A stretch of 14,454 nt of DNA from a virus (lineage: Duplodnaviria; Heunggongvirae; Uroviricota; Caudoviricetes), in the IMG/VR virus record IMGVR_UViG_2778261009_000003, positions 1 to 14,454 of that record. One strand, written 5' to 3'. The notes under the pieces are model-generated. The model was not told where the DNA came from. It did not search any database and saw nothing but the letters and a program-made list of their open reading frames with translations. Below are positions 1 to 14,454 of the stretch, piece by piece. How positions within the stretch are numbered: the first letter of the stretch is position 1; the number at the start of each line of letters is the position of its first letter. The position numbers and the translations under genes are program-made.

Positions 1-128
1 GCTGGAAAGGCTGGGCCATACTCCTCCGGCAGAAGCAGAAAAAGCTTATTATGCTTCCATCGGAAACGATGATCTGGCAGCCTGAGTTCACAGATAAAAC
101 ACTCTCCAGGAAACCCGGGGCGGTTCAG
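1..128. repeat. Left copy of a perfect 128-bp inverted repeat (partner 14327..14454)
   Basis: Checked base by base: the reverse complement of 1..128 equals 14327..14454. The match stops at position 129 (g, where the partner strand would give t). This copy lies inside the HAD reading frame. Confidence 0.95.
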
Positions 129-548
129 GTGAAGTCGCTACGTGAAGCGGTTCATGAAGTGAATGGAATATGGAAATTTGCCCTTACAGATACTGATACA
201 GCTAAATTACAAAATTTCAATCAAACCGTTGAAGAAGAGCTTGGGCTTACATGCGAATGGTCGTGGCATGACCAAGTAGATATAGCACAAACCGGAAACA
301 GCAAAGGTAAACGATTGGCACAATGGGTTGAGTCTCAGGGTTTATCAATGAACCAAGTTATTGCTTTTGGGGATAACCATAACGATCTTAGTATGCTAAA
401 AAATGCTGGTCTTGGCGTGGCTATGGGTAATGCCGTAGATGAAGTGAAAGAATGTGCTGATTTAGTGATAGGAACTAACATGGAATCAGGAATTGCTGAG
501 ATAGTTAACAGATATTTTGATCATGTACCTGCACAAAATGTTTTATGA
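3..548 (+). CDS. Cof-type HAD-IIB family hydrolase (sugar-phosphatase-like), 5'-partial, runs off the window start
   Basis: Frame 3 is open from position 3 with no stop; stop codon at 546-548. The C-terminal motif VIAFGDNHNDLSMLKNAGLGVAMGNA matches the HAD motif III/IV region of Cof/YbiV-like phosphatases as I remember them. About 41% GC in a hand-counted 100-nt sample. Confidence 0.75.
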   Translation, partial: WKGWAILLRQKQKKLIMLPSETMIWQPEFTDKTLSRKPGAVQVKSLREAVHEVNGIWKFALTDTDTAKLQNFNQTVEEELGLTCEWSWHDQVDIAQTGNSKGKRLAQWVESQGLSMNQVIAFGDNHNDLSMLKNAGLGVAMGNAVDEVKECADLVIGTNMESGIAEIVNRYFDHVPAQNVL

Positions 549-575
549 TTTTGAAACTACTAGGAGAGTTGACCA

Positions 576-785
576 ATGACAGATGAACAATTTGAAAATA
601 ACTATCCAAGAGATCAATATAGCTACGTACGTAAGAGCTTTAGAACCAAAGGGACAATGGGACAAACAGAAATTGAAGTCTTTGATATTGTCACAAAAGG
701 TACTGGTGAAGTTGTGCTCACAGCGACACGAACAGAACATACTAATCTGCGTGGTTTAAACACTACAGTTAACTGGGATTGGTAA
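576..785 (+). CDS. Small hypothetical protein (69 aa), probably host-encoded
   Basis: ATG at 576 preceded by AGGAG (562-566) with 9-nt spacing; followed by a hairpin at 800-827. No family recognised. Confidence 0.55.
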   Translation: MTDEQFENNYPRDQYSYVRKSFRTKGTMGQTEIEVFDIVTKGTGEVVLTATRTEHTNLRGLNTTVNWDW

Positions 786-793
786 TGATTAGC

Positions 794-830
794 AAAAATA
801 AAGCCCGCTCAATTTACTGCGGGCTTTGTA
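794..830. terminator. Rho-independent terminator-like hairpin, probably bidirectional
   Basis: Stem aaagcccgc (800-808) pairs with gcgggcttt (819-827) around a 10-nt loop; A-run upstream on plus gives a U-tract on the minus strand. Sits where composition shifts from host-like to AT-rich. Confidence 0.5.
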
Positions 831-859
831 GATCATAAGATTATCTGAGAACTCTTGAA

Positions 860-889
860 TTCGACAATCTATTCATCGGTGATTAAAAT
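860..889 (+). promoter_or_regulatory. Candidate sigma70-like promoter (TTCGAC, 18-nt spacer, TAAAAT) that would give a near-leaderless transcript for the 897 ORF
   Basis: Hexamers read by eye at 860-865 and 884-889. No Shine-Dalgarno precedes ATG 897. Weak evidence. Confidence 0.2.
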
Positions 890-896
890 CTCTTAT

Positions 897-1601
897 ATGA
901 AAAAACATCATTTTAAAAAATTAGTTAAACAAATTAAATTTTCTCATATAGCTTGTTTAGCAGTCGGAATACTGATCCCGATATATATAGATGTCTTAGG
1001 TTTTCATGAATTTAATAGTTCTACTGTATCTGCCATTATGGATACAGTATTGGCAAGCATTGCTACTTATACACTATATAAAGTCAAAAATTGGTACAAT
1101 GAAAAGACACATACGAAAGGATTCGAACAAGCAAATAATTTTATTGTTCATTTATCCGATGCTAAATTAAAGTCAGAAAAAGTATTTGAGCACATAATGA
1201 ATATGTATTGCTATTTAGGCACCAAAAATTTGGGAAAAACAGACCCACATTATGAAAAACTCAATAATGAAATTGAGACATTATGGTTAGATTTTAAAAC
1301 TCATTTATCTGTGCTTTCTTCACAAAAAGACATATTAAAAGTTTGGGAAATCGAAATAAGACCAGATCAACGAGATGGCATAACCCAGTACATTAGTACT
1401 TTATATAAATTTTCAGAGCTTAGCCAAATGATGATCTTTTCATATAAAGATGTTAATGGCATGGCTCGTAAAAAATCATATGAGTTCAATCAAATTAGCT
1501 TCAATCAATGCTATGCCTTAACACAGATTCTATCTACATCTTGGATGAACACCTGGAGGTCATTATTTGTAATTACTAAGTCAACCACCCACCATGATTA
1601 A
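897..1601 (+). CDS. Hypothetical membrane protein with two predicted N-terminal TM helices and a roughly 170-aa soluble domain
   Basis: Long open frame in very AT-rich DNA (about 26% GC in sample 901-1000), where chance ORFs of this length are unlikely. The ORF track starts at TTG 855; ATG 897 (MKKHHFKKL) is preferred. Hydrophobic segments IACLAVGILIPIYIDVLGF and VSAIMDTVLASIATYTLY. Start uncertain. Confidence 0.5.
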   Translation: MKKHHFKKLVKQIKFSHIACLAVGILIPIYIDVLGFHEFNSSTVSAIMDTVLASIATYTLYKVKNWYNEKTHTKGFEQANNFIVHLSDAKLKSEKVFEHIMNMYCYLGTKNLGKTDPHYEKLNNEIETLWLDFKTHLSVLSSQKDILKVWEIEIRPDQRDGITQYISTLYKFSELSQMMIFSYKDVNGMARKKSYEFNQISFNQCYALTQILSTSWMNTWRSLFVITKSTTHHD

Positions 1602-1871
1602 AAGTATCTGTAGTAGCTCACCTAGTGGAATTTGTATTAATACAATACCAAACGCATCAAGAACAGGAACAATTATCCAATTATATAAAATGATTAGGGA
1701 AAGTACAAAACCAAGGAAGTTTCTCCAGTGAAAGGTGTTTTGCTCAATTTCAATTTTATTTGTCTCAATCTGTCCATCAGTGTTAGTTTTATGTTCCTCT
1801 TTTTCAATTATTTTTGTCTTTGTAAAAAGACTCATTATCGTACTAATTAATACGGAGATTGCATTTATCAT
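1581..1871 (-). CDS. Small membrane protein (96 aa) with a hydrophilic middle and two C-terminal TM helices
   Basis: ATG at 1871 with AAGGA 8 nt upstream; begins 12 nt after the stop of the upstream minus-strand ORF. Its 3' end overlaps the 3' end of the convergent 897..1601 ORF by 21 nt. Confidence 0.5.
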   Translation of the reverse strand: MINAISVLISTIMSLFTKTKIIEKEEHKTNTDGQIETNKIEIEQNTFHWRNFLGFVLSLIILYNWIIVPVLDAFGIVLIQIPLGELLQILLIMVGG

Positions 1872-1882
1872 ATTTCATTTCC

Positions 1883-2203
1883 TTATTGTAACTGGCATAC
1901 GACTGACCAAACGCGATGACCTTTGTAGACTTGATTAAAACATGACAGTACTGCTACTGTCTTATTATCACCAAGACATACGGTATCGAGTACATCACCA
2001 TCATTAACATTCGGAATATTGTTTAGATTGAAACTGAATACAATCAAATTCCCTTTACTCTTATCTACCTTCTTTTTAATTAACTTGCTACCCGAAAACA
2101 CTTTGTCATATGGCAAAGTAACACTTACAGGTTTGACGTTTTGAAATAGGAATTCATCCAGTACGGTATGGTCATAACAGGGATATTGATCAAGTATATT
2201 CAT
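1883..2203 (-). CDS. Hypothetical protein (106 aa if started at the internal Met; track ORF starts at 2215)
   Basis: Internal ATG at 2201-2203 is preceded by GGAG at about 6-nt spacing and overlaps the stop of the upstream ORF (TAATG). No family recognised. Confidence 0.45.
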   Translation of the reverse strand: MNILDQYPCYDHTVLDEFLFQNVKPVSVTLPYDKVFSGSKLIKKKVDKSKGNLIVFSFNLNNIPNVNDGDVLDTVCLGDNKTVAVLSCFNQVYKGHRVWSVVCQLQ

Positions 2204-2796
2204 TATTTTCTCCATTTATATTCGAATGTACCACTCATAGTTTGAAGTTGTCGTAATACCATTTTTTCGGTTGTGTCATAAAAATCAAATATTGGTTTTC
2301 TTCCAACACTTCCATAATAACCAATAACACGTTCCTTACTCGTTTTCGTCTTCTTGGTAGTGTCGATTAGATATGTCTTTCCAGACGTCTTACTCTTCAC
2401 TTTTTTATATTTATCGTTCTTACGCTTTGATTTAAGTTGACTTATATTACCCTGTTTTGTCTTCTTGGCGTTTTGGTATGGGATCGCTTTATATTCCTTA
2501 TTCCCTACATAATCAGGGTCAATAATATGCTTTAAGTATCTCGCCTGATTTCCCAGTACTATAATCTGGTTTACACTCTCAAATTCATTAAGCCGTTTAA
2601 AATTAAAGTACATCGCTCTACCCGTATATGGAATTACACCACCATCTACTTCCTGGTTAATTTTATGCTGTATCTGTTGGGTAACATTACGCATACGATT
2701 ACTTAGTTCTTTTTTGAAGTGTTTACCGATCTTTGGGGAATTTTTATTAACAAATTTTTTCATATCATCTGGTGAATGACCATTCTTCCATTTCAT
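2203..2796 (-). CDS. Lysine-rich basic protein (197 aa), putative DNA-binding partner with a NUMOD3-like N-terminal motif
   Basis: ATG overlaps the upstream stop as ATGA; GAGAGG RBS 6 nt upstream. N-terminus KNGHSPDDMKKF resembles the NUMOD3 motif of GIY-YIG homing endonucleases (from memory). Lys-rich tract KSKRKNDKYKKVKSKTSGK. Confidence 0.5.
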   Translation of the reverse strand: MKWKNGHSPDDMKKFVNKNSPKIGKHFKKELSNRMRNVTQQIQHKINQEVDGGVIPYTGRAMYFNFKRLNEFESVNQIIVLGNQARYLKHIIDPDYVGNKEYKAIPYQNAKKTKQGNISQLKSKRKNDKYKKVKSKTSGKTYLIDTTKKTKTSKERVIGYYGSVGRKPIFDFYDTTEKMVLRQLQTMSGTFEYKWRK

Positions 2797-3221
2797 GATA
2801 ACCTCTCTAATAATTGTTGCAGTACTTTGAATGTTTCAGAACGATTTTTACCAAGCCGTACTTTACACATCACGGCAAGATTCAAATTATTTGATTGCTG
2901 TCCTAAGAATAGAATCAACGCCGCTTCTACCTGCTCGGCTTCATTCGTCGTACTGAAACACCATAGTATTTGTTTTTCATAGTTCAGACCTGAATCGACC
3001 ATTGCCTGCACTTTCTTTGAGGAAGAATAATAATTCTCCCAGTTGGATTCCTTTGTAGTTGGCTTCAGCTTCTTTACATCCCGAATACCTTTGAAGATTG
3101 ACTTTACACCAAAATAATATGAACCATCGTCAAAAGTGATCATATATACAAAAGCTGCATACCTCCCGTCATTTATATCTTCATAATCCCATGTCTCAGG
3201 ATCATGCATTGTCCATTTCAT
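2793..3221 (-). CDS. GIY-YIG-like nuclease domain protein (about 142 aa from ATG 3221; track ORF starts at TTG 3236)
   Basis: Motif FVYMITFDDGSYYFG fits the GIY-(10 aa)-YIG spacing; Arg 8 residues after, then NEAEQVEAAL and SNNLNLA resemble the I-TevI Glu and Asn regions (from memory, not aligned). About 31% GC. Confidence 0.5.
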   Translation of the reverse strand: MKWTMHDPETWDYEDINDGRYAAFVYMITFDDGSYYFGVKSIFKGIRDVKKLKPTTKESNWENYYSSSKKVQAMVDSGLNYEKQILWCFSTTNEAEQVEAALILFLGQQSNNLNLAVMCKVRLGKNRSETFKVLQQLLERLS

Positions 3222-3257
3222 ATAAATACCCCACAAACAATAATTTATGAGGTATTT

Positions 3258-3704
3258 ATGTGTTTAAGAGAAAAATTAAAAGTATATGAAGGTACGAAAG
3301 AATACCAAGCCCATATGGGTTATTATCGCAATGGTAAATTCTGGGTGTATAAATGTAGTGAGAACAAAGATACGATTGGATATGGACATCTACTAAAAGC
3401 CTCTGAATCGTTCTCTAACGGCATTAACGAGGATGAAGCAGATAAACTACTGGATAAAGATATTGGCATTGCCAAACGTGATTTATCTACCTTAAATTTG
3501 AAATTACCACAGGACTGGGAAGACTTCATGGTTATTATGATTTTTCAGTTAGGCTTAGGTGGTACTAAGAAGTTTAAAAAGATGATCATTGCATTACAAA
3601 ACAATAATTATACAGAAGCAATTAAACAGGCAAAGGATAGTTTATGGTATCGTCAGACACCGAATAGACTTGACAAAATGATTAAAGATTTAATTAACAA
3701 ATAA
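3258..3704 (+). CDS. Phage lysozyme / endolysin, GH24 T4-lysozyme-like
   Basis: TIGYGHLL and SLWYRQTPNR closely parallel T4 lysozyme TIGIGHLL and SRWYNQTPNR. GAGG RBS 6 nt before ATG 3258 (track ORF starts at 3204, rejected). No signal peptide or SAR-like N-terminus. Confidence 0.8.
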   Translation: MCLREKLKVYEGTKEYQAHMGYYRNGKFWVYKCSENKDTIGYGHLLKASESFSNGINEDEADKLLDKDIGIAKRDLSTLNLKLPQDWEDFMVIMIFQLGLGGTKKFKKMIIALQNNNYTEAIKQAKDSLWYRQTPNRLDKMIKDLINK

Positions 3705-3735
3705 AAAAGGGGCATTAAGCCCCTTTTTATTTTTC
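3703..3735. terminator. Bidirectional rho-independent terminator between convergent genes
   Basis: A-run, GGGGC stem, ATTAA loop, GCCCC stem, T-run; lies between the lysozyme stop (3702-3704) and the 88-aa gene stop (3727-3729). Confidence 0.65.
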
Positions 3736-3993
3736 AAGTATCACAAGAATACGTGCAATATCTACTTCAAGTCGTCTGATTGATTCATCAACTGACTTAA
3801 GAGTAATCTTCATAGCTTCATGCTCACTTCGTAATGTAGTAACAGATTGTTCTACAAGTGCAAGTCGTGTTTCTACTGAGGCAAGACGTGCTTCTATTTC
3901 TGCATCATCAGTCTTATTATCACGAATGATAGTCCAGATTAATGCTACAAAAGTTAGAAAAACTGCAATCCCTGCAATTACCAATTCTACCAT
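3727..3993 (-). CDS. Small membrane-anchored coiled-coil protein (88 aa), possible lysis-associated (holin- or spanin-like) protein
   Basis: One N-terminal TM segment (LVIAGIAVFLTFVALIWTII) then a heptad-like charged helix. AAGGGA RBS upstream. No embedded lipoprotein ORF found in other frames, so not a classic Rz/Rz1 pair. Function is a guess. Confidence 0.45.
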   Translation of the reverse strand: MVELVIAGIAVFLTFVALIWTIIRDNKTDDAEIEARLASVETRLALVEQSVTTLRSEHEAMKITLKSVDESIRRLEVDIARILVILEK

Positions 3994-4055
3994 TCCCTTT
4001 AGTTCCCTTTTTAATTATTATAGGTAGTTTTTAGGCTACCCATATTTATTTAGTT

Positions 4056-7000
4056 TTAGTTACTAACGGGGTTCTCACCACTACGGAATAAGAAGAGATC
4101 AAGTCTGTCACCTGGTAGATTATTGTTTCCCTGATGTTCGCCTATATCCAGTCCACATGAACCACTACGGCCATCTGAAGCCATTACATATAGATAATTC
4201 ATCTTACCCCTACCTACAGCAGGAATTTGAATATTATCAATTTTATATGAAACTGGCGTATCTTCACCACCGGAACCTGCATCATAACCCCATAATAGAC
4301 GGTTTGCTATTCCATCCCCACCAACAAACACTTGAAAATAGTTCCACTTCCAGCATGTAAAATAAAAACTCATATTACTATTCAGAGTCCTTGCAAAGTC
4401 CTCCCCTTTAATACGCAATCCTACATATAGTCGACCTGGTTCTGGTCTATAGTTTTCTGGGAATTCTACCCCAGGAGGTGCCCATACGTTCCCCTGTCGA
4501 TTAACTCCAGTACTTTGAGGTCTGCACTGATCACCAACAATACGTGATGCATTAAGAGTACCAAGAATTGTACAGTCCTGGTTAATAGTAACATTATTCA
4601 TGGTTCCACTGGTTGCCTGAATATTACCCCGTACTGATACGTCCTGGAAGCTTGCCTTACCATTCTTATTGATCATCCAGCCTGTACTACCATTCCAGTT
4701 TGTAGATTGAATTTGCTGGGATATTTTTGCTGAGTCGATAACCCCGTTAACTATGTGTCCATTAAGGATTGAAGCATTGGCTATGCGAGCTGAGTCGATT
4801 GCTGCTATCTGAATTTTCGCACGCGAAACGGCAAGGTCATTTATCTGCCCTGTGTTTATACTCGCGTCTCCAATGACCGCACTATTGATATAAGTCTTAC
4901 CATTCTGAACTACAAACGGATATACCTTATCAGTCTGTTTAGCACTGTCAGTAGAAATAATACTGAAACGATCTGCCATTACCGTAAATGCTGAGTTTTT
5001 CCCGTCATTAGCAAGTGATACACCTGACACGTTGCCGTTATTCGTCACCTGAACCTGCCAGCGTGAACCAAGGTCATCAACAATATGTTTCTCAATAATG
5101 CCTGTGGCAACATCTGAATTCAGTAATTCATCTACAACATCATCATTTAGCTTTGAGTACGGAACTTTAGTATTCTGGTTAAAACCAATAGTTGGCGACC
5201 ATACTAATTCATCCTGTCCCATTACATCATATGCTGCAAGACGTCCGAACCACGATCCATCCTCTATCCCAAATGAAGCTGAGAAGCGGTTAGAAGAACT
5301 GAAATAGTGAACATCCGAACTAAAACCCTCATCCTTAGCACACTGGAACACTACACCAGAATAGTCTGGTACGTTTGATTCATCCCATTCTAAGAACACA
5401 TTATCATAGCCATTACGCAAACGTACACCAAGTAATTGGGGGTGCTGTGGGTTACTTACTTCAATCTGTACTTCTTCTGAATAAATTCCAGTACCGTGAC
5501 CGTGGGCAATAATACCAATTACACGATATCTGTTAAGTCCATCAGATTGATTCATTGCAAAGGTATATATCCAGTTAAAGTCCGTTGTAAAGTACGACTT
5601 AATATATGTACGATAACGGTCATACACACGAATTTCATAATATTTGAAAAAATCAGAGAATCGTTTTCCATTTACTGGCAAAGTACTTTGTTCATCCCAT
5701 CTGAATATAAAATCTTGTGAATAAGTCTGGTTCAATCCCATATTATCGTTAGTCATATCAAGATTAGTAATCTTTGGTAGGGCAAAAATCACCTGTGGAG
5801 TTTGATTATAAATTGCAACTAACTCAGATGAATAACCGAGAGTGTTATACGCCTCAATACCAAAATCATATTTAACACCGTGGATTAGATTCAGTATCTG
5901 AAACTCTGTGGTGTACTGTCCTACGTTACCAATCGAGATCCATGTATTCGAATCACTGCGTTTATATCTAATCTTATAACCCCGTACGCTTGAATCCTGG
6001 CTTAAATCCCATGTCATAAGCACGGCATTACCGTTAACGGTTGCACCAAGTTTCTGCACCTGCAAGTTTGATGGAGGTTCTACGTATGTCGCGTTTGGTA
6101 GATTTGTGATCCCGTCCTGTGGGAATCGTCCATGGTCTTTCCCCTGATATATGCCGTCCGCATAGGCTATAGCGGTAATCTGTACGACACCAGTCTTATC
6201 TACGGTCATCGGTACAGTACGTTGTATTACACGGAACTTATTATTAACAAATCCGGCTTCTTTGAAACTGAGTGTAAAAACATCGTAGACTGTGAGATCG
6301 GTAACGTATGTGTTAAAAGTTATACTATTAAGAACATACTTAGATTTTAATAGTTCGGTATTAGCCATTTTAGCAAGTTGTTTTTTGTCCTGAATCCATT
6401 TTAGATTAAGGTCTTTTTTAATGATTAAACCATCCCGTACCACTGTTTCATTTGTAAGCGTATCACTTGGATAACGAATAATATCTTCTGAGTAATCACC
6501 GCCTGGGTTTGTATAGGTCACATCGAATACGTTCGCATAATCCGTATTAGAACCAGTTGTGATATTCACAGTACCGAGAATGTTTTTTTCATCAAAATGA
6601 TATAGTGGGACATCGGCAGTATCTACGGTGAGATACATAATACCATTCGATTCATATATTACACCACCGAATGTAGACAAGATGCTTTCAAGGTTTTCTT
6701 TATATGACTTATCATAGGCAATAGCACCATTTGAATATAGTTCATTATTCTTACAGTACATTGCACAATTACGAAATGATGCAATATCAATATCATTAGG
6801 ATCAGTGTTGAAACCAAATTCATTATTTGTGATAAAGTCATATAACTGACTCGGTGGATTACTGGAGGGTTTACGAATGTTATCAGTAAGGTCATAAATT
6901 AGACGTCCTTTCATCTCCAATGAAAGTGCATAGTTTTGATTCACTAAAATACCATCAGTCAGACTACCATTAGTCTTACGGATAACCGAACAAACCTGTA

Positions 7001-7613
7001 CTAATCCATCACCACGCATTTCATCAGTCCAGCGAGATCCGCCATATTGCCGGGCAAGTGTCATAGAACCACCATAAGACGGCTTTCCAAAACGAATTTC
7101 GAGCTGGAGGAAGTTACGATACTTCTCACGCATAAGGGATGTAGAAACAATACCCTCACTGGTTATTTCGGCATCATCTAGTAAGATTGGACTGTTATCA
7201 AAGTATACCTGTTTAATTACGGCACCAGATTGTGCACCTGGAGCACGTCCGATCTCCCCGATACTAATAGCATGCACTGTGCATAGTTGGTTACTTTGTC
7301 CCTTATAGACGTTCTGCCATACGACAATGGAACCTACCTTAACAAATGATTCTTCGGTCAGGCTTCTATTAGTACCGCCATATACAATCGGTATCCCAGT
7401 ACTGGGTGAAGTACTTCGAGAGTTAACCGTTCCAGTACTGGGATAGTTTACCCCCTGATCTCCAACACGCATCATCTGGGAGGATGCAACATAGGATAAT
7501 GCTGCTACACCAACACCAATAGCGATAGATGCTGCAAGACCCACTGCTGCGTAAGCTGCGGCGGCGGCTGATGCACCTGCTATTACTGCTGTTAATACGG
7601 CTGCTACTGCCAT
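4056..7613 (-). CDS. Host specificity protein J-like central tail fibre / tail tip protein (1185 aa) with an N-terminal gpI-like hydrophobic extension
   Basis: C-terminal SGTMNNVTINQDCTILGTLNASRIVGD parallels lambda J SGTLSNVTIAENCTINGTLRAEKIVGD (from memory). FN3-like segment around KIRYKRSDSNTWISIG. GGAGGG RBS 7 nt upstream. About 46% GC. Confidence 0.85.
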   Translation of the reverse strand: MAVAAVLTAVIAGASAAAAAYAAVGLAASIAIGVGVAALSYVASSQMMRVGDQGVNYPSTGTVNSRSTSPSTGIPIVYGGTNRSLTEESFVKVGSIVVWQNVYKGQSNQLCTVHAISIGEIGRAPGAQSGAVIKQVYFDNSPILLDDAEITSEGIVSTSLMREKYRNFLQLEIRFGKPSYGGSMTLARQYGGSRWTDEMRGDGLVQVCSVIRKTNGSLTDGILVNQNYALSLEMKGRLIYDLTDNIRKPSSNPPSQLYDFITNNEFGFNTDPNDIDIASFRNCAMYCKNNELYSNGAIAYDKSYKENLESILSTFGGVIYESNGIMYLTVDTADVPLYHFDEKNILGTVNITTGSNTDYANVFDVTYTNPGGDYSEDIIRYPSDTLTNETVVRDGLIIKKDLNLKWIQDKKQLAKMANTELLKSKYVLNSITFNTYVTDLTVYDVFTLSFKEAGFVNNKFRVIQRTVPMTVDKTGVVQITAIAYADGIYQGKDHGRFPQDGITNLPNATYVEPPSNLQVQKLGATVNGNAVLMTWDLSQDSSVRGYKIRYKRSDSNTWISIGNVGQYTTEFQILNLIHGVKYDFGIEAYNTLGYSSELVAIYNQTPQVIFALPKITNLDMTNDNMGLNQTYSQDFIFRWDEQSTLPVNGKRFSDFFKYYEIRVYDRYRTYIKSYFTTDFNWIYTFAMNQSDGLNRYRVIGIIAHGHGTGIYSEEVQIEVSNPQHPQLLGVRLRNGYDNVFLEWDESNVPDYSGVVFQCAKDEGFSSDVHYFSSSNRFSASFGIEDGSWFGRLAAYDVMGQDELVWSPTIGFNQNTKVPYSKLNDDVVDELLNSDVATGIIEKHIVDDLGSRWQVQVTNNGNVSGVSLANDGKNSAFTVMADRFSIISTDSAKQTDKVYPFVVQNGKTYINSAVIGDASINTGQINDLAVSRAKIQIAAIDSARIANASILNGHIVNGVIDSAKISQQIQSTNWNGSTGWMINKNGKASFQDVSVRGNIQATSGTMNNVTINQDCTILGTLNASRIVGDQCRPQSTGVNRQGNVWAPPGVEFPENYRPEPGRLYVGLRIKGEDFARTLNSNMSFYFTCWKWNYFQVFVGGDGIANRLLWGYDAGSGGEDTPVSYKIDNIQIPAVGRGKMNYLYVMASDGRSGSCGLDIGEHQGNNNLPGDRLDLFLFRSGENPVSN

Positions 7614-7614
7614 G

Positions 7615-8004
7615 TTATTTCCCTCCGAATCTATAAATTTTATAATTGTTTTCTATTGGTTCATATTTCATTACTGTATAGACACCATCGATTAAAATGA
7701 TTACTTTACCTCTCCAGTACACAGTAGATTGGGAGCCAGTAATTAGGATATCCCCATCAAATGGTTCTACTTGTTTTATACCCAGATCATTACATAGGGC
7801 ATTTAGTGATTTATATGAACAATGTTCTTTTGCGTACTTTCGACCGCCAGTAGGTGACGTATATTTCTGATAGATTTCGTCCCTGTAATTTGTACCAAGA
7901 TGCATATCAATAACAGTCAGAGACATGATATGACAATCATTTTCACCGTATACAATTGGCTGACCGATTAGAGTACTAAGATATTCTGTAATAAATCCAT
8001 TCAT
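7615..8004 (-). CDS. Minor tail protein (129 aa), K-like position, partial NlpC/P60-like signature
   Basis: GQPIVYGENDC and GDILI resemble the NlpC/P60 G-x-P-Y-x-W-G-x-x-D-C-S-G and GDLVFF motifs, but no His follows. Start overlaps the upstream stop (TAATG). Confidence 0.45.
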   Translation of the reverse strand: MNGFITEYLSTLIGQPIVYGENDCHIMSLTVIDMHLGTNYRDEIYQKYTSPTGGRKYAKEHCSYKSLNALCNDLGIKQVEPFDGDILITGSQSTVYWRGKVIILIDGVYTVMKYEPIENNYKIYRFGGK

Positions 8005-8648
8005 TATTTTTTACTCGCTTGCCAAAACTGCTCTGAACTATTTAGTATTCCGATTAGATCAAAGAACTTATCACCCTTATGGGTTGATTGGTGAATTGAT
8101 GTACTTGATAGTAGACGTTGTGTCTGGTCTAATTTCTTCCATATGGAATTGAGATTAACAGTGGTTTCATTCTGTGTGTTAGTTCCATCTACAGAAAAAT
8201 CACTGCTAAAATAATCTATATATCCACTAAAAATACGATAACGGTAAAGAAGTGCACCTGTTGCAGGGTTAACGATCCCCATCCAGATATTAACTTTGGC
8301 ATCTTTCCACAATCCTCTTAAAGCAAGGGAAAGATAATCCTGGCTTACGTTACTAATCTTAAACGTAGTACCGGTATTATTGATCTGATTCTTTTCTACA
8401 TAGTTCGCAAAGGATGAATCAATTAGATCTGGAATTGGTTTATATACAATGCCATTGATATTCTGTTCTACTACTGCATCAGTAAGGTATAGATTACTTC
8501 CTGTAGGAGGTAATAGATCAATCAGTTTTACCATGATTCCACACTGGTATAATTCCCTTTCTGTAAGAACTGACTTATTATCACCCCGCATTAGATTCCA
8601 GTACTTTACTAATTCTGGGTTACTTAGTACATTGTTTGGAATTGCCAT
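8004..8648 (-). CDS. Minor tail protein (214 aa), L-like position
   Basis: Translationally coupled within the tail operon; AAGGGG RBS upstream. Assigned by position only; lacks the Cys cluster of lambda L. Confidence 0.45.
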   Translation of the reverse strand: MAIPNNVLSNPELVKYWNLMRGDNKSVLTERELYQCGIMVKLIDLLPPTGSNLYLTDAVVEQNINGIVYKPIPDLIDSSFANYVEKNQINNTGTTFKISNVSQDYLSLALRGLWKDAKVNIWMGIVNPATGALLYRYRIFSGYIDYFSSDFSVDGTNTQNETTVNLNSIWKKLDQTQRLLSSTSIHQSTHKGDKFFDLIGILNSSEQFWQASKK

Positions 8649-8649
8649 A

Positions 8650-9204
8650 TTATCCCCTTATATTCTCTGTTGCCGTAATTGTCATTTCAATAATATTCGT
8701 ACTTGGTAAGTCATATGTAGAGTTAGCAGGTGTAAGAATAAAAGAACCCATTAGATTATCGTATTTTACTGTTTCCCCTATCTGGATATTTCGGATCAGT
8801 CCTGGGTAGATATTCAGAGTCGTTCCACTACGGGCAATAACACGATAGAGTTTTTTGTGTCCTGAGAATTGAATTAAATCACCTGGGGAAAGGTTATTAG
8901 TATTGGTCTGAATAGATGTAGCCCCGGCTGTACGGGCTGCTGTTACCTGTACACCTGTCGCCTGATTACCTGAATAATCACCCCACCAACCAAGAGACAT
9001 ATCAAAAGGTCTGCCATTGGAATAGAGTGCAAGAAAGTTTGTTAAATCGGTTCTGTATTTTTTACTTGTTGTAACCTTAAAACTTATGCTGAAGTACTGT
9101 GTTCCGACAATACGGGTAATTACCTCACCAGACCATGTTTTGTTTTGGTATTGGGGGATATTATCAGAAAGTACAAAATCACTTATTAGAGAGTTATTAA
9201 ACAT
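8650..9204 (-). CDS. Minor tail protein (184 aa), M-like / distal tail position directly after the tape measure
   Basis: Position and AAGGA RBS. No diagnostic motif. Confidence 0.45.
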   Translation of the reverse strand: MFNNSLISDFVLSDNIPQYQNKTWSGEVITRIVGTQYFSISFKVTTSKKYRTDLTNFLALYSNGRPFDMSLGWWGDYSGNQATGVQVTAARTAGATSIQTNTNNLSPGDLIQFSGHKKLYRVIARSGTTLNIYPGLIRNIQIGETVKYDNLMGSFILTPANSTYDLPSTNIIEMTITATENIRG

Positions 9205-9219
9205 ATATTTTCCTTATAA

Positions 9220-9237
9220 AGCCCACATGAATGTGGG
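9220..9237 (-). other. Intergenic hairpin between tape-measure stop and next gene start
   Basis: gcccaca / tgaa / tgtgggc, 7-bp perfect stem; followed on the minus strand by a short U-run and then the RBS. Confidence 0.3.
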
Positions 9238-9251
9238 CATACTGTATTTAC

Positions 9252-11513
9252 TTAGACGTTCCTCTGTTGGCTTTTACGTACTGCCTGGGTGATAGTATCG
9301 GCGTGTTTATCACACATACTCTGGAATTTTGAATCTGTGAGTTCTCCGGCACCCTGAATAATTAAAGGGGCATCAATTTTAATATCACCACCTTTATCAC
9401 TCCCCTTATTATTCAAGTACTGTGTTAAGTCCTGGTTCAGAGATTTACCTACAACACGTTCACCTTTTTCAAGATTATATGTACCAGTCTTCGGTAGTGA
9501 GTCCCAACCATCATGTGCCTGACCTTCAATCTTTGTACCCTTAATCGTACTGACAATATTGGCACCTTCGGCTGCAACCTTAATACCCGCAGCGATGCCT
9601 GTAGGCCAGCCAAGCTTCATAGCCTCAGAAATACCCTGCTGAATATTGATAATAGACTGGGCAACTGCGATCCCTTTGCTCATTGCAAATGCAGCTTTTG
9701 CCATAGCATTACTTTCACCAAATACACCTGCAAGAGTAGTACCGAGATCCTGAGCACCCGTTGCATACATAGAAAGTGTCTTTTGCTGGGCATCAATATT
9801 AGCCTGACTCATTTTGTCTGTAGTAGATTGTTGAATTGCTACCATGCGATCTTGGTAATCCTGATAACTTAATAACTTCTGTTCATACAGACTTTGATTC
9901 AGTGCTAATTCGGCCTGTCCTTCTGTTGCTAATGTATCGAGCGTGTTCTGATCGGCACTCATATTTAATGGATCTTGATTAAGTCCCATACGTTCGTTTT
10001 GACCTGCCAGTACTGAATTAAGGTCTTTTCCTGACATAGAACCACCAATTGCCGAAATATTCTGGGCAAGTTTAAGTGGATCACTTTCAGTGAGCATTGA
10101 ATTAACCATTTCTTTATACAGGCGTTTACGTGAATCAGTCTGCTTTCTTAATAGTTCAGTCTTTTCAGCTTCAGTTTTACCAAGAGTATCTGCACTTATT
10201 TTAATGCGTTGTTCTATTTCATCCTGGGTCTTATTAAATTGTTGTAGCTGTAGGGCAGCACCATTACCTGCAATACCATTCATAGTCTGTTCCAGTACTT
10301 TGGCAGCCTGGATACGATCCTTTGCGGCCTTATCACTGGCTTTTTTCGCTTCTTCCCCTGCTTTACCATCATCGAAGTTAGAACGCTCTTTTGTCGTTCC
10401 TGTATATGCCTTTGTAGTTGGTTTATAGTCTTCCTGTGAATATTCACGGGCAAAGGCAGCAAGACCACCAATACCTGGTCCAAGTGGTGAAAAAACTGCA
10501 TCGGCTGCTGTCTGTACGTGTTTACGTCCTTTTGCTATTTGCTCGGGTGTAAACTCGGGTAATTCAAGGCCAATCTTTGATCCTAAATTACGGATCATGT
10601 CATAGAATTTAACGACCTGATCGTATAACGACTGTATGATCGTGTTTTTTGAATCCCAGTTAAAGAATGAATTAATAAACTCAACTGCTTTTGTTTTGAG
10701 GTTGTCAAACCATTGATATATTTCCTTACAGGCTTTTACGAGTCCATTAAAAATATCAATGAGGGGTGTAACAATTTCAAATGCAAGAGTTTTCAGTCCG
10801 TTACCAAGACCTGAAGTATTCTGACTTAACAGATCAAATGTTTTTGCCTGTTCATTAGTCATTGCTACGTTCTGGGCTGCAAGAGAGTTATTAAATTCAA
10901 TCTCACTATTAAAAGAGTTGAATGTAGGTATTAGTTTTGCAGCATCACCACCGAGAGCATTAATCATGTTTGTAATTTCGGCAAGATTTGCACCATTCTT
11001 TTTCATCTCAAAAAAGACTTTTGACAATGCCTGTAAACCACCATCAGCCTGTTTTAATGTTGGTATTAGGCTCTTTACATCTACGCCGAATGTTTTCAAG
11101 TCACCGCCAACGCCAGAACCGTCCGCAGACGCAATACCAAGTTGATCCATCACTGCTTCGTTAATCGAACCAACTTCTTCCATAGATAATCCTATGGTTT
11201 TGAATGCCCCTGACCACTGCTGGAGTTGCTCGGCACTTAGTCCGGTTGTGCGTGTCAATGCGTTGATGTCGTTTGCAAGTCCAATTGTATATGTGGTCAG
11301 TGCTGTAATAGCTGTAATTGCCATTGTTGCCGCATTACCAACACCACCAAGACCAGTTGCCATTGAACTTAGGCCACCACTAATACCACCAAATACACTA
11401 CCAGCACGATCACCAAAGTCGGCAAGTCCATTGCCAGCACTTTTTAAAGATTTTTGTAACCCAGATTCATCACCTGTGATTTCAAAAATCATCTGTTGTT
11501 TATTCCCTGCCAT
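9252..11513 (-). CDS. Tail tape measure protein (753 aa)
   Basis: Large Ala/Gly/Gln-rich ORF with low-complexity helical stretches, immediately downstream of the G/GT chaperone pair; its ATG lies 1 nt after the T-frame stop. Confidence 0.85.
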   Translation of the reverse strand: MAGNKQQMIFEITGDESGLQKSLKSAGNGLADFGDRAGSVFGGISGGLSSMATGLGGVGNAATMAITAITALTTYTIGLANDINALTRTTGLSAEQLQQWSGAFKTIGLSMEEVGSINEAVMDQLGIASADGSGVGGDLKTFGVDVKSLIPTLKQADGGLQALSKVFFEMKKNGANLAEITNMINALGGDAAKLIPTFNSFNSEIEFNNSLAAQNVAMTNEQAKTFDLLSQNTSGLGNGLKTLAFEIVTPLIDIFNGLVKACKEIYQWFDNLKTKAVEFINSFFNWDSKNTIIQSLYDQVVKFYDMIRNLGSKIGLELPEFTPEQIAKGRKHVQTAADAVFSPLGPGIGGLAAFAREYSQEDYKPTTKAYTGTTKERSNFDDGKAGEEAKKASDKAAKDRIQAAKVLEQTMNGIAGNGAALQLQQFNKTQDEIEQRIKISADTLGKTEAEKTELLRKQTDSRKRLYKEMVNSMLTESDPLKLAQNISAIGGSMSGKDLNSVLAGQNERMGLNQDPLNMSADQNTLDTLATEGQAELALNQSLYEQKLLSYQDYQDRMVAIQQSTTDKMSQANIDAQQKTLSMYATGAQDLGTTLAGVFGESNAMAKAAFAMSKGIAVAQSIINIQQGISEAMKLGWPTGIAAGIKVAAEGANIVSTIKGTKIEGQAHDGWDSLPKTGTYNLEKGERVVGKSLNQDLTQYLNNKGSDKGGDIKIDAPLIIQGAGELTDSKFQSMCDKHADTITQAVRKSQQRNV

Positions 11514-11514
11514 A

Positions 11515-11835
11515 TTATTTTCTTCCCATCCAGTTTAACATGTTTGCTCTCTGTTCTTCGGCGATCCGTTTCTCTCTCTCTTCGGCTTGTTCTTTAATGG
11601 TCTTATTGTTGATGATATTAAGAGAGTCCAATTCTGTGATACTGAATTTCTTTAAGTCTTCCTTCTTAATATTCCCAGTACTGAGCCATATAGCCTGGAG
11701 TATTTCGGTATGTCTTACCTGTTCAATTCGGGAAGAATTTGGTTCTACAAAAGTGTCATATACAAATAGATAGATAAAAAGCGAAAAGGGCATGGTGCAG
11801 AGATCTTCCACACCACACCCTTTTGTCATCAGCAT
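11515..11835 (-). CDS. Tail assembly chaperone T segment, probably expressed as a G-T fusion via -1 frameshift
   Basis: This ORF is in the -1 frame relative to G. Its frame is open upstream to a TGA three codons before the G stop, so it overlaps the slippery site. Confidence 0.6.
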   Translation of the reverse strand: MLMTKGCGVEDLCTMPFSLFIYLFVYDTFVEPNSSRIEQVRHTEILQAIWLSTGNIKKEDLKKFSITELDSLNIINNKTIKEQAEEREKRIAEEQRANMLNWMGRK

Positions 11836-11867
11836 TTTTAGAGAAAGTTTAAGAAACGGATCGCCTC

Positions 11868-12158
11868 TTACTTTTTTTCAATTTCTTCAATATTCATAGC
11901 TTCGGTAAAAATACGCGTGATTTCGGTATTAAGTTTGATTTGATAAACCATGTCAATTTCGCTTTCTACCTGTTCTGGTGATTTAAAAAGTTGTTTGCCA
12001 TCGACATCAACTACACAGTAATGAATTGTAGTGTACGGGTCACTACATTCACTATACTTAGAAATAGCTGGAAGACGAATATAAACAGTAAACCCCGGAG
12101 CAAGTTCAAAGGCATGTTTTTTGACACCAATTGCTGTCATTAGATTAGATAGATCCAT
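11868..12158 (-). CDS. Tail assembly chaperone G-like (96 aa)
   Basis: Small acidic protein between tube and tape measure; ends ...EIEKK* with slippery heptamer A-AAA-AAG directly before the stop. Confidence 0.65.
   Translation of the reverse strand: MDLSNLMTAIGVKKHAFELAPGFTVYIRLPAISKYSECSDPYTTIHYCVVDVDGKQLFKSPEQVESEIDMVYQIKLNTEITRIFTEAMNIEEIEKK
11871..11877 (-). other. Programmed -1 ribosomal frameshift slippery heptamer A_AAA_AAG (G/GT)
   Basis: Minus-strand aaaaaag (plus-strand ctttttt at 11871-11877) in the zero-frame register gaA AAA AAG TAA. Same heptamer as the E. coli dnaX shift site. Confidence 0.6.
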
Positions 12159-12190
12159 GTGTATTTTTTCCTTATTATGATTATTTTATA

Positions 12191-12667
12191 TTATGGTTTT
12201 GCTGCGATTTCACCAACTGCTACAGGTTGTCCCGTAATTGTCATGACGAATTCACGTGTCGCGACAGAATCAAAATCCCCACCGACAACATCAGAACTGA
12301 TATAGCCATTAACTACAGAGTAATAACCCGCACCATCGGTATCAGCGATGTTTTCGTAATAGGTTACTTTTACCTGCATAAGCGTCTGTTTTTGAGCTGC
12401 GGTAACTAACATCTCCTGTCCTACTGCCCCTGGTTTCCAGTTCACAGATAGGGTTAGATCGGGTACAGAACGAGAACCTAATAGCTTCTGTGCGTACTGC
12501 TTACCAAATGTATTTACTGAAATGATTGTACTCTCGGCACCTGCTGCTGATGGGAAAGCTGCAACTTCTTCAATTACTGTATAAGTGGTTGCCTGACCAC
12601 CACCTGCTGGTGCTTCTGCAATTTCTACTACAACGTTATTCGCTGCGAAAATTCGATTAAAAGCCAT
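12191..12667 (-). CDS. Major tail (tube) protein (158 aa)
   Basis: Size and position directly upstream of G/GT and tape measure; AAGGA RBS 8 nt upstream. No motif-level confirmation. Confidence 0.65.
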   Translation of the reverse strand: MAFNRIFAANNVVVEIAEAPAGGGQATTYTVIEEVAAFPSAAGAESTIISVNTFGKQYAQKLLGSRSVPDLTLSVNWKPGAVGQEMLVTAAQKQTLMQVKVTYYENIADTDGAGYYSVVNGYISSDVVGGDFDSVATREFVMTITGQPVAVGEIAAKP

Positions 12668-12688
12668 TTTAATTTCCTTATTTAATTA

Positions 12689-12707
12689 GGGTAACGTCCT
12701 GTTACCC
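12689..12707 (-). other. Intergenic hairpin upstream of the tube gene
   Basis: gggtaac / gtcct / gttaccc, 7-bp perfect stem, between the 533-aa ORF stop (12718-12720) and tube start (12667). Confidence 0.3.
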
Positions 12708-12717
12708 GTTTCCTTTT

Positions 12718-14319
12718 TTATTTATGAAGATTGTAGTACTGCACATATAGCCCCAATCCGCGTAAAAGTTCACCCGAATAGAAACTAAAGAACATACTAT
12801 TGTTTTCGGCAGTTGTTTCATTACCTGTTCTGATTGACGCAGGCCATGTACCATTCATTACATGATTTGGTGAAATAACTGCATAGTTAAGTTGTATTTC
12901 ATCAAATAGTAATTGAATTAGCTCATGGTCTGGATATCCGGCGATAGCCATCATGCATGCCCCTGCTAACCATAGACCTGACATATGAGGGGTAAAGCCA
13001 TCATATTCTACAGAACCATTATCCCTAAAATAGGTAGGAGCTTTACCGACATTATTTTTCATGAACCATTTTAGATAGTTCATCCAGTTCTGACAGAAAG
13101 ATATTAGTTTAGGAGGTATTACAGTACTGTCTTGTCGTGACCATAATTCATGTACTGCATCACACCCACCAAAGAAAGCCCTTGGTTCGTATCCACTCCA
13201 TGCTTCGGCGTACCAGTGCTGCATTATGAATTGATCTGGTTTACCATCAGGAGCATATGCTAAAGCGTCCTGTCTGTTCCATACGAAAGCCTGTGCACAT
13301 GGTCCTGGTAAAGATGGTTTAAATTTATTTTTAAACCATGCCTGAGAATCATATAGAAAATTGATACTGTTATTTAAGCGAGTATGATCTATTTCTGTTC
13401 CTTTAAAGCACCAGATCGCCGGTAGTTGATAACCAGGATACGGTAGACCACGCCAGCCAGAATATAACTGGGCATAGGGATCGGTAATGTTAGAGAACGG
13501 AATTAAACCGGGAGTATACGCAAGACTATCTAACATATAATCTTTAATAGTACAGTCACCTAATCGTGCTGTGTATCCATTACCAGTTGTGTCGTTAAAC
13601 GTAAGCAGTACTGTGACCGAATAATCACCTGTCCCAGCATCTGTATACATCGCAGGCAAATCATTAATACAATACCAGTCAATCTTTCCATTCACACCAT
13701 TTACTGGATCTGTATCAAGTAGCAGTGTGAAAGATTCACGGTTCGTTAGTACTGGGCTTGCTGGAATTGGATCTGGTTGAATCCATTCTCCTGGGTTATC
13801 TGGATCTTCAATTTCGGGGTGATCTGGTTGATAACCGTTTAGTTTGAAGTCAGCAATAGTAAAAGTCTTTGTAACCCATTCACCATTTGTTGCAGGGAGC
13901 ATAGCCCACCAACGCCATTTATTATCATCACTTATACGAAAGTTAAAATCATCATCATATGAACGATAGGTAAAAGACTGAATATTGGCAGTCTCTGGTG
14001 TGAATATCCAAAACCCCACCACCTGTCCCCCGTCACCATCCATTGTTGTAGACACGACGTTATCGTAATACTTCCCAAGTACTCCACTCTGATATTCAAA
14101 GTTTGTTACCGTGTTATCTCCATAATCGGCAATCATACGTAGATCGGCAGTCATATAATTAGAGCCATCTGGTTTCATCACACGTGTGAAACGATTCATA
14201 GGAATGTCCATTGTAGTAATAGATCCATCTGGATTAGTCATTGGTAAGCCACACCGATAATCAATTGCACCCTCTTCTGTCTTTGTTTTATTCACTGTGA
14301 CTTCAGCAGATACTGACAT
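12718..14319 (-). CDS. Large hypothetical protein (533 aa), Trp/Tyr/Asn/Asp-rich, enzyme-like; possibly 5'-truncated at the inverted-repeat junction
   Basis: 1.6-kb open frame. The only start is ATG 14319, 7 nt inside the junction, with no Shine-Dalgarno; the frame is open upstream into the repeat until a stop. Not recognisable as capsid, portal, terminase or sheath. Confidence 0.55.
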   Translation of the reverse strand: MSVSAEVTVNKTKTEEGAIDYRCGLPMTNPDGSITTMDIPMNRFTRVMKPDGSNYMTADLRMIADYGDNTVTNFEYQSGVLGKYYDNVVSTTMDGDGGQVVGFWIFTPETANIQSFTYRSYDDDFNFRISDDNKWRWWAMLPATNGEWVTKTFTIADFKLNGYQPDHPEIEDPDNPGEWIQPDPIPASPVLTNRESFTLLLDTDPVNGVNGKIDWYCINDLPAMYTDAGTGDYSVTVLLTFNDTTGNGYTARLGDCTIKDYMLDSLAYTPGLIPFSNITDPYAQLYSGWRGLPYPGYQLPAIWCFKGTEIDHTRLNNSINFLYDSQAWFKNKFKPSLPGPCAQAFVWNRQDALAYAPDGKPDQFIMQHWYAEAWSGYEPRAFFGGCDAVHELWSRQDSTVIPPKLISFCQNWMNYLKWFMKNNVGKAPTYFRDNGSVEYDGFTPHMSGLWLAGACMMAIAGYPDHELIQLLFDEIQLNYAVISPNHVMNGTWPASIRTGNETTAENNSMFFSFYSGELLRGLGLYVQYYNLHK

Positions 14320-14326
14320 TGCAGTA

Positions 14327-14454
14327 CTGAACCGCCCCGGGTTTCCTGGAGAGTGTTTTATCTGTGAACTCAGGCTGCCAGATCATCGTTTCCGATGGAA
14401 GCATAATAAGCTTTTTCTGCTTCTGCCGGAGGAGTATGGCCCAGCCTTTCCAGC
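14327..14454. repeat. Right copy of the perfect 128-bp inverted repeat (partner 1..128)
   Basis: Exact reverse complement of 1..128; an inverted duplicate of HAD-gene coding sequence fused to the 5' side of the 533-aa ORF. Confidence 0.95.

Follow-up and report, generated by a model that had tools for sequence, protein, structure and literature searches.

In the tail tip of phage lambda, three gpI chains occupy the lumen, with strands threaded through the hub domains of gpJ (PMC10721106, PMC11101478). The tube is sealed by the gpI plug (residues 159-175), on which the C-terminal coiled coil of the tape measure protein rests (PMC11101478, PMC10721106), and the two hydrophobic helices of gpI, H1 and H2, disappear from the lumen once LamB is bound and have been proposed to enter the outer membrane (PMC10721106, PMC11101478, PMC12617516). 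The RcGTA and R4C megatrons carry at their extreme N terminus a hydrophobic helical gate, an iris or penetration domain for which the same insertion into the outer membrane has been proposed (PMC7296036, PMC10276861). In T5, the plug changes its fold and fixes the opened cone in the membrane (PMC10038345). The C terminus of the tape measure protein contacts the plug in both lambda and T5 (PMC10721106, PMC10038345). Here we analysed a 14,454-nucleotide stretch of viral DNA (hereafter the window; IMG/VR record IMGVR_UViG_2778261009_000003, positions 1 to 14,454), which carries the right end of an Escherichia coli prophage. Its minus strand encodes a siphophage tail module that includes a J-like, or baseplate-hub, tail-tip protein of 1185 aa (4056..7613; RefSeq WP_069917189.1, a single coding sequence (CDS) named 'phage tail tip protein'). 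Profile comparisons show homology between the N-terminal ~105 residues of this protein and the C-terminal half of lambda gpI, a relationship that only profiles detect. We consider it highly probable that the module found in lambda as the C-terminal half of gpI is here, as residues 1-105, covalently joined to the J-like chain, with a plug or pore role assigned by analogy.

Family profiles connect the N terminus to lambda gpI

A word-indexed search with the N-terminal 320 aa of the J-like protein returned only four partial close relatives and an exhaustive search was hence needed; with residues 1-320 as query against 1.84 billion cluster representatives, it yielded 116 proteins. The N termini of these homologues share a common plan, comprising a hydrophobic stretch, a polar linker, the sequence P-V-V-Y-G-x-x-R-V-G-G and then a J-type motif, 'yL.vv.l.EGeI'. 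We cut 99 homologues just before the J-type motif, aligned the pre-J segments (alignment A1) and compared the resulting profile with 177,635 distinct PDB sequences. Only four matches had E<0.01, and all were gpI-type chains: three of lambda gpI (9e7m_Ia, 1.1e-4; 9e7m_Ic, 1.2e-4; 8iyk_I, 6.4e-3) and one of the F2-pyocin gpI homologue (25vf_9, E=7e-3), with the next match at E=0.33. Comparison with 25 gpI homologues by hhalign gave a probability of 93.8% (E=1.7e-7) and placed residues 47-105 of the window protein on gpI 158-211. Individually, 8 of the 99 segments matched the gpI family phrog_32 (best E=1.3e-5) and 5 matched phrog_4554. The hydrophobic composition of the N terminus is not the source of this signal, because a profile of the post-hydrophobic part only still scored real gpI at 19.4 bits, against a maximum of 14.5 among 40,000 shuffled gpI sequences. 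Intermediate sequences also exist, as phage DCP80 (LPLVYGEQRVGS) and the representative P0093 (LPVLYGKMRVGG) carry motifs near-identical to that of gpI (LPVLYGEMRVGS). Lambda gpI itself finds matches within phrog_31, a family named 'central tail fiber J' (E=3.5e-8), and joined I-J proteins are therefore already present in public families. A preliminary description of this DNA, made from the sequence alone, had likened the stretch that follows the hydrophobic start to the C-terminal region of gpI, and the PDB profile search, hhalign and the shuffle control bear that likeness out.

The match continues into gpJ. On one 340-aa family profile, gpI 127-221 corresponds to positions 10-94, gpJ 21-66 to positions 85-140 and gpJ 230-424 to positions 191-354; the window protein therefore reads as the C-terminal half of gpI followed directly by gpJ. 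T5 pb3 aligns from profile position 61 with its residue 263 onward (FIPVVYGVQKIPGIPIF…AFAEGEIDGF), a junction that directly follows the pb3 plug (hydrophobic tip at 233-236), the tube-closing, membrane-anchoring element (PMC10038345). Against the PDB, the family profile matched pb3 with E=1e-62 for the match as a whole and lambda gpJ with E=6e-43. The body of the protein contains hub domains HDII-HDIV (the Pfam Phage-tail_3 region; PF13550, E=6e-6), a Pfam fn3 domain at 513-595 and Phage_Tail_Tip at 850-944, and BLASTP aligned the protein with gpJ 821-1106 (E=4e-12). Foldseek placed T5/DT57C pb3 and lambda gpJ at the top for this body and also found T1, JBD30, Chi and the RcGTA particle. The only NCBIfam match was a weak one to lambda_TipJ, in the C-terminal fibre region.

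Organization of the N-terminal segment

The first 48 residues proved to be as strongly hydrophobic as originally described, and the translated start agreed exactly with the sequence quoted then. They contain no charged residue, and 92% of them are A, G, V, I, L, M or S, compared with 45% in the remaining protein. Mean Kyte-Doolittle hydropathy over 19 residues exceeds 1.6 only within this stretch, in two blocks (averaging frames starting at residues 1-10 and 14-27), and gpI has comparable hydrophobic blocks at 101-156. A Sec or lipoprotein signal peptide was considered and rejected, as there is no charged n-region and two long hydrophobic blocks extend over 48 residues.

From the N terminus onward, and all on the minus strand, we delimited five elements. 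Helix 1 (residues 3-21, 7551..7607), predicted from hydropathy, composition and an AlphaFold2 model with a predicted local distance difference test (pLDDT) score of about 30, is the candidate counterpart of gpI H1, and helix 2 (residues 29-48, 7470..7529), predicted from hydropathy and AlphaFold2, that of gpI H2. A Ser/Thr/Gly-rich linker (residues 49-72, 7398..7469), placed by hhalign and modelled as coil at low pLDDT, occupies the position of the gpI plug and the loop behind it. It is followed by a strand module with a PxVYG…(R/K)VG motif (residues 73-105, 7299..7397; IPIVYGG-[TNRSLTEESFV]-KVGSIVVWQNV), the counterparts of which are gpI 186-211 and T5 pb3 263-280. Within it, 'IPIVYGG TNRSLTEESFV KVGSIVVW' (residues 74-101) aligns with gpI 'LPVLYGE MRVGSRVV', the window protein having a 10-residue insertion (TNRSLTEESFV) relative to gpI. 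The first J-type motif, SNQLCTVHAISIGEIG (residues 107-122, 7248..7295), equals lambda gpJ 21-37, TQLLSVIDAISEGPIEG, by local hidden Markov model (HMM) comparison and alignment. The gpJ match thus starts at residue ~107-108, corresponding to gpJ residue 21, close to the residue (about 105) from which J similarity had been reported, and by sequence alignment this motif marks where the I/J gene boundary of lambda would fall.

The AlphaFold2 model of the J-like protein was built from a 40-sequence alignment and had a mean pLDDT of 72. It predicts helices at 3-21 and 29-48 and coil to residue 75, all at low confidence, followed by confident strands at 76-78, 91-94 and 96-102 that run on into the hub domain. 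The pLDDT climbs to 69-88 from residue ~72, which in the model is the point where the chain joins the hub domain. The predicted order of helix, helix, loop and strand is the same as in gpI 101-223 (PMC11101478).

Relatives throughout the family share the joined layout

A separate I gene could not fit in front of the J-like gene, because the gap between the stop of the upstream DUF6950 gene and the J-like start is 1 nt: the DUF6950 gene ends with TAA at 7615-7617, one spacer base follows and the J-like ATG lies at 7613-7611. A Shine-Dalgarno sequence, GGAGGG, read directly from the sequence at 7621..7626 on the minus strand, precedes this ATG by 7 nt. The J-like reading frame is continuous, and RefSeq genomes have the same layout. 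The ubiquitin-like domain Lambda_tail_I (PF06805) gave no Pfam match in the scanned open reading frames (ORFs) of the window (all but the tape measure gene and two chaperone-sized ORFs), and tblastn of gpI 1-100 found no match in the whole window. As a positive control, PF06805 was detected in lambda gpI, where it spans only residues 14-97. Both the absence of an I gene and that of the ubiquitin-like N-domain, as first proposed, were thus upheld by these results. No Pfam or NCBIfam model covers residues 1-105 of the window protein because the Pfam gpI model stops at the ubiquitin-like domain.

The prophage is rare, with the region 4056-8004 present in 3 of 5,426 complete E. coli genomes; in two of these the CDS is identical and in the third it is 97.7% identical. 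Strains with the prophage are E. coli FDN-9, FDN-24 and N61. In eight homologues (P0001-P0019), 24-37 of the first 48 residues are identical. The preliminary description had called for a survey of fused and separate forms in relatives and for a check on a sequencing frameshift. The survey found the motif joined to the J-like body in every one of the 105 representatives that have an N terminus, and the intact CDS in three complete genomes, together with about 100 independent homologues, excludes a frameshift. At the Y-G position of the motif, 100 of these representatives have YG, 4 have FG and 1 has LG. At least one hydrophobic segment lies upstream of the motif in 82 of the 105 (two in 33, one in 48). 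The continuous layout also occurs in phages DCP80 and henriette.

Some J-like relatives are shorter at the N terminus. P0026, P0032, P0079, P0080 and P0111 start about 10 residues before PVVYG, without a hydrophobic segment. In a Joint Genome Institute (JGI) contig of the P0032 lineage (Ga0620837_000564, 2024-7066), in-frame stops precede the start codon, and 20 nt separate it from the end of the DUF6950 gene; the neighbouring tail-tip proteins in that contig have no membrane-like segment.

Comparison with described tail tips

The C-terminal half of lambda gpI (~100-223; PDB 8IYK, 8K35, 8XCG, 9E7M) and the window segment both consist of two Ala/Gly-rich hydrophobic helices, a linker or plug and the strand motif, and both sit immediately before the first gpJ-type motif. 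In lambda, however, gpI is a separate 223-aa protein with a ubiquitin-like N-domain, encoded between K and J, whereas the window element is the N terminus of the J-like chain, lacks that domain and has the insertion in its motif. Lambda gpJ and the tail fibres of T1 and F2-pyocin (8IYK_J, 9L9P_S, 25VF_A) have hub and FN3 domains homologous to those of the window protein, and gpJ additionally shares its C-terminal tip-fibre region. Unlike the window, all three systems have a separate gpI-type chain (8iyk_I, 9l9p_A, 25vf_9), and their J proteins lack the hydrophobic extension, starting at the 'EGxI' motif or close to it.

T5/DT57C pb3 (PDB 7ZHJ, 8HQZ) is the best match to the body, both in the profile search and in Foldseek (E about 1e-32). 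As in the window protein, its FIPVVYG…AEGEIDG sequence is contiguous with the hub domains, but pb3 includes a gpL-like part (residues 1-262), which puts its plug in the interior of the chain and not at the N terminus. In T5 the plug refolds to a beta-hairpin, whereas the window protein has two hydrophobic helices. The systems of RcGTA g15 and the R4C megatron resemble the window in having a separate distal tail protein, a separate hub, a small gene and a large hub/fibre protein, and the hydrophobic helical gate at the extreme N terminus that characterizes megatrons is predicted in the window protein from hydropathy and AlphaFold2. The body matches RcGTA by Foldseek (6tba_8A, E=1.7e-13, TMt 0.57). 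The two differ in that the RcGTA hub has an Fe-S cluster and the window hub a single Cys; in the K-position gene, which in the window encodes DUF6950 and not a recognized NlpC/P60 peptidase, unlike the g14 peptidase of RcGTA; and in the FN3 domains and lambda-type central fibre end of the window protein, which set it apart from the RcGTA megatron.

Proposed role in tail opening

By analogy with these systems, the window protein most likely does the same as gpI by means of a built-in module. In the virion, three copies would lie inside the tail-tip cone, with the strand segment zipped into the hub domains and packed on the first hub domain of the J-like body, and with the linker and helices closing the channel and holding the C terminus of the tape measure protein. 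Receptor binding by the central fibre would make the hub domains swing outward and the plug loosen; the hydrophobic helices may then drop onto, and subsequently insert into, the outer membrane. Such insertion would anchor the opened tube and help to form an exit pore for the tape measure protein and DNA. Being part of the J-like chain, the module is necessarily present once per subunit, and the gpI-type ubiquitin-like domain would not be needed to deliver it.

Several observations weigh against this assignment. The signal in the sequences is moderate and extends over a short stretch of 25-47 aligned columns. When window residues 1-138 were compared with lambda gpI by BLASTP, the match was not significant (E=3.7), an HMM of 25 close gpI homologues found nothing among the six-frame ORFs of the window, the J-like N terminus included, and neither PHROG nor Pfam yielded a family for the N-terminal segment of the window protein alone. 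Because all relatives returned by the search for gpI homologues were at least about 70% identical, the gpI profile has little depth. The alignment to gpI that had been suggested as a check therefore came out in two ways, failing in pairwise form and succeeding with family profiles; the proposed refutation, no significant similarity to gpI, would have seemed to hold in a pairwise test because only profiles detect the relationship. The hydrophobic helices are not reliably alignable, and their suggested equivalence to H1 and H2 rests on position and composition. AlphaFold2 confidence is below 50 for residues 1-71, and the RcGTA megatron was not among the PDB matches of the N-terminal profile at E<=10, so that no sequence match to its N-terminal domain (g15 residues 1-46) was obtained. 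Some relatives keep only the motif, and in such lineages the helices can be dispensed with. Membrane insertion is only hypothesized even for lambda gpI and RcGTA, and the authors of the T5 study are doubtful that siphophages in general use a pore-lining helix (PMC10038345).

Three other explanations have to be set against the reading of residues 1-105 as a built-in gpI-like module. The resemblance to gpI might be convergent, with a strand that docks on a hub domain needing similar residues irrespective of ancestry. The shortness of the motif and the failure of the pairwise and one-directional HMM tests would suit this idea, which we nevertheless regard as very improbable, as the same elements (helices, linker, PxVYG..RVG and the J 'EGEI' motif) occur in the same order, are exactly collinear with lambda I and then J, are contiguous in T5 pb3 and lie in the same neighbourhood of tape measure protein, distal tail protein, hub and K-position gene. 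Intermediate sequences bridge the families, moreover, and gpI itself matches in phrog_31. The hydrophobic N terminus could also act in assembly, as a transient anchor in the host inner membrane or an intramolecular chaperone during formation of the tip complex, to be buried or removed later, with no part in penetration. This is less improbable than convergence but still unlikely: earlier classifications put gpI among the tail assembly proteins, a name that persists in PDB and RefSeq records, relatives without the hydrophobic segment exist and outer-membrane insertion is still a hypothesis in all of the systems (PMC11101478, PMC12617516), yet the lambda helices sit in the lumen of the mature tail and leave it upon receptor binding (PMC11101478), RcGTA and R4C virions show an N-terminal helix gating the channel (PMC7296036, PMC10276861) and nothing in the window suggests a cleavage site.

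The extension might, finally, be an artefact, either because the true start is Met47-48 or because a frameshift merged a small I-like gene with J. Residues 1-48 are of low complexity, their GC content is 52% as against 40% for the rest of the gene and their AlphaFold2 confidence is low, all of which could be expected of such an artefact. The first ATG, however, follows the strong GGAGGG and lies 1 nt from the upstream stop, whereas with Met47 as the start, about 140 nt would go untranslated although the genes of this operon are otherwise closely spaced. The CDS is conserved in three genomes and the first 48 residues are conserved at the protein level, and the layout is continuous in about 100 cluster representatives as well as in DCP80 and henriette. 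A frameshift or wrong start is effectively refuted, and we give it next to no weight.

The tail module and its gene order

The J-like gene closes a series of tail genes on the minus strand. The tail tube protein is encoded at 12191-12667, and two chaperone-sized ORFs lie between it and the gene for a 753-aa tape measure protein (9252..11513), assigned from its size, composition and position upstream of the distal tail protein. The distal tail protein itself (184 aa, 8650..9204) matches phrog_1302 (E=5e-17) and, weakly, the Pfam DTP-pb9 B-domain. A 214-aa hub protein (8004..8648) in the position of gpL and RcGTA g13 matches the tail protein family phrog_2048 (E=3e-26) and gave a weak match to Pfam Phage_phiJL001_Gp84_N (PF09931; E=0.004, 17.8 bits, against a curated cutoff of 26). 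Lambda gpL and RcGTA g13 contain a 4Fe-4S cluster (PMC10721106), which the window hub would be unable to form because it has a single cysteine. The K-position protein (129 aa, 7615..8004; the position of gpK and RcGTA g14) matches Pfam DUF6950 (E=4e-8) and phrog_2134, with no match to a peptidase family and no sequence relative in the PDB. A DUF6950 gene also precedes the J-like gene in Vibrio phage henriette and the JGI metagenome contig, both of which share with the window the order tape measure protein, distal tail protein, hub, small K-position gene and J.

Other features of the window and of related phages

Both ends of the window gave matches related to insertion sequences (IS). Its last ~135 bases (14318-14454) match IS3/IS629-family ends common in Stx phages, and positions 1-135 match records at or near IS629 or transposase annotations in Stx-type phages. 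A minus-strand ORF of 533 aa (12718-14319) corresponds to only part of a 952-aa CDS in E. coli FDN-9 (22663-25521 of the region examined), a gene that is probably interrupted by an IS in the strain from which the window derives. In the same ORF, upstream of the tail tube gene, a borderline tblastn match of gpI (14017-14226, E=0.01) rested on a shared 'DGDGGQVV' run (gpI counterpart 'EGDGGQVVV'); the gpI HMM did not support it, and we treated it as chance. The prophage region adjoins pgl/ybhD in FDN-9, and a fragment of a host HAD-type hydrolase at 51-548, which overlaps the stretch with the IS629-type matches, marks the junction between prophage and chromosome in the window.

Towards that junction lie several small genes. 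A phage lysozyme gene (3204-3704) is encoded on the plus strand, opposite to the tail genes, and adjoins a 147-aa minus-strand ORF (2793-3236) with a SegE-like GIY-YIG homing-endonuclease domain (Pfam E=1e-16). A 96-aa minus-strand ORF (1581-1871) gave a weak match to GTA_holin_3TM (E=0.001), below the curated cutoff. Outside the window, the closest cultured-phage homologue of the J-like protein is that of Escherichia phage DCP80 (PQ671644.1, 10817-27521), where a gene of tape-measure size precedes it. The DCP80 record is classified as Straboviridae/Gaprivervirus (T4-like) despite this siphophage-type J-like protein, and its classification or assembly may deserve a check.

Fusion, fission and implications for siphophage tail tips

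The preliminary description read the N terminus as suggesting an I-J fusion. The joined layout stands; fusion as an evolutionary event does not follow, the contiguous form being the rule in this family. Our data give homology and layout, not the direction of change. The contiguous form prevails in this family and is also that of T5 pb3, with an analogous N-terminal gate in RcGTA and R4C, and the split form with a ubiquitin-like domain is that of lambda, T1 and F2-pyocin. Fission fits at least as well as fusion, because the lambda I/J boundary falls inside a unit that is continuous elsewhere, and the split I/J of lambda may be a derived state.

A broader proposal, to which we assign slightly less than an even chance, is that the helices, plug and PxVYG strand form an ancient siphophage 'gate and pore' cassette whose gene boundaries have repeatedly moved, with the unsplit form ancestral and lambda I a product of fission. 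Such a cassette would lie inside the protein in T5 pb3, stand at the N terminus in this prophage and in about 100 related lineages, and form a separate gene with an added ubiquitin-like domain in lambda, T1 and F-pyocins; its helices would have been lost entirely in lineages of the P0026/P0032 type. Gene I would go back to an ancestral hub protein that was split within a beta-sheet, with the ubiquitin-like domain recruited afterwards for delivery of the detached piece.

The feature is a typical member of a known, widespread architecture and implies no new mechanism. What the comparison provides is a functional label for the first 105 residues of the RefSeq 'phage tail tip protein', a region undescribed there, and sequence-level evidence that the C-terminal half of gpI, the N termini of many J-like proteins and the post-plug segment of T5 pb3 are the same element. 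It also suggests a rule for annotation, in that a J-like protein starting with Ala/Gly-rich hydrophobic helices and PxVYG..RVG would carry a built-in gpI-like plug, and no gene I is to be expected beside it. Such natural one-chain variants would be useful for asking whether the hydrophobic helices form the exit pore in the outer membrane.

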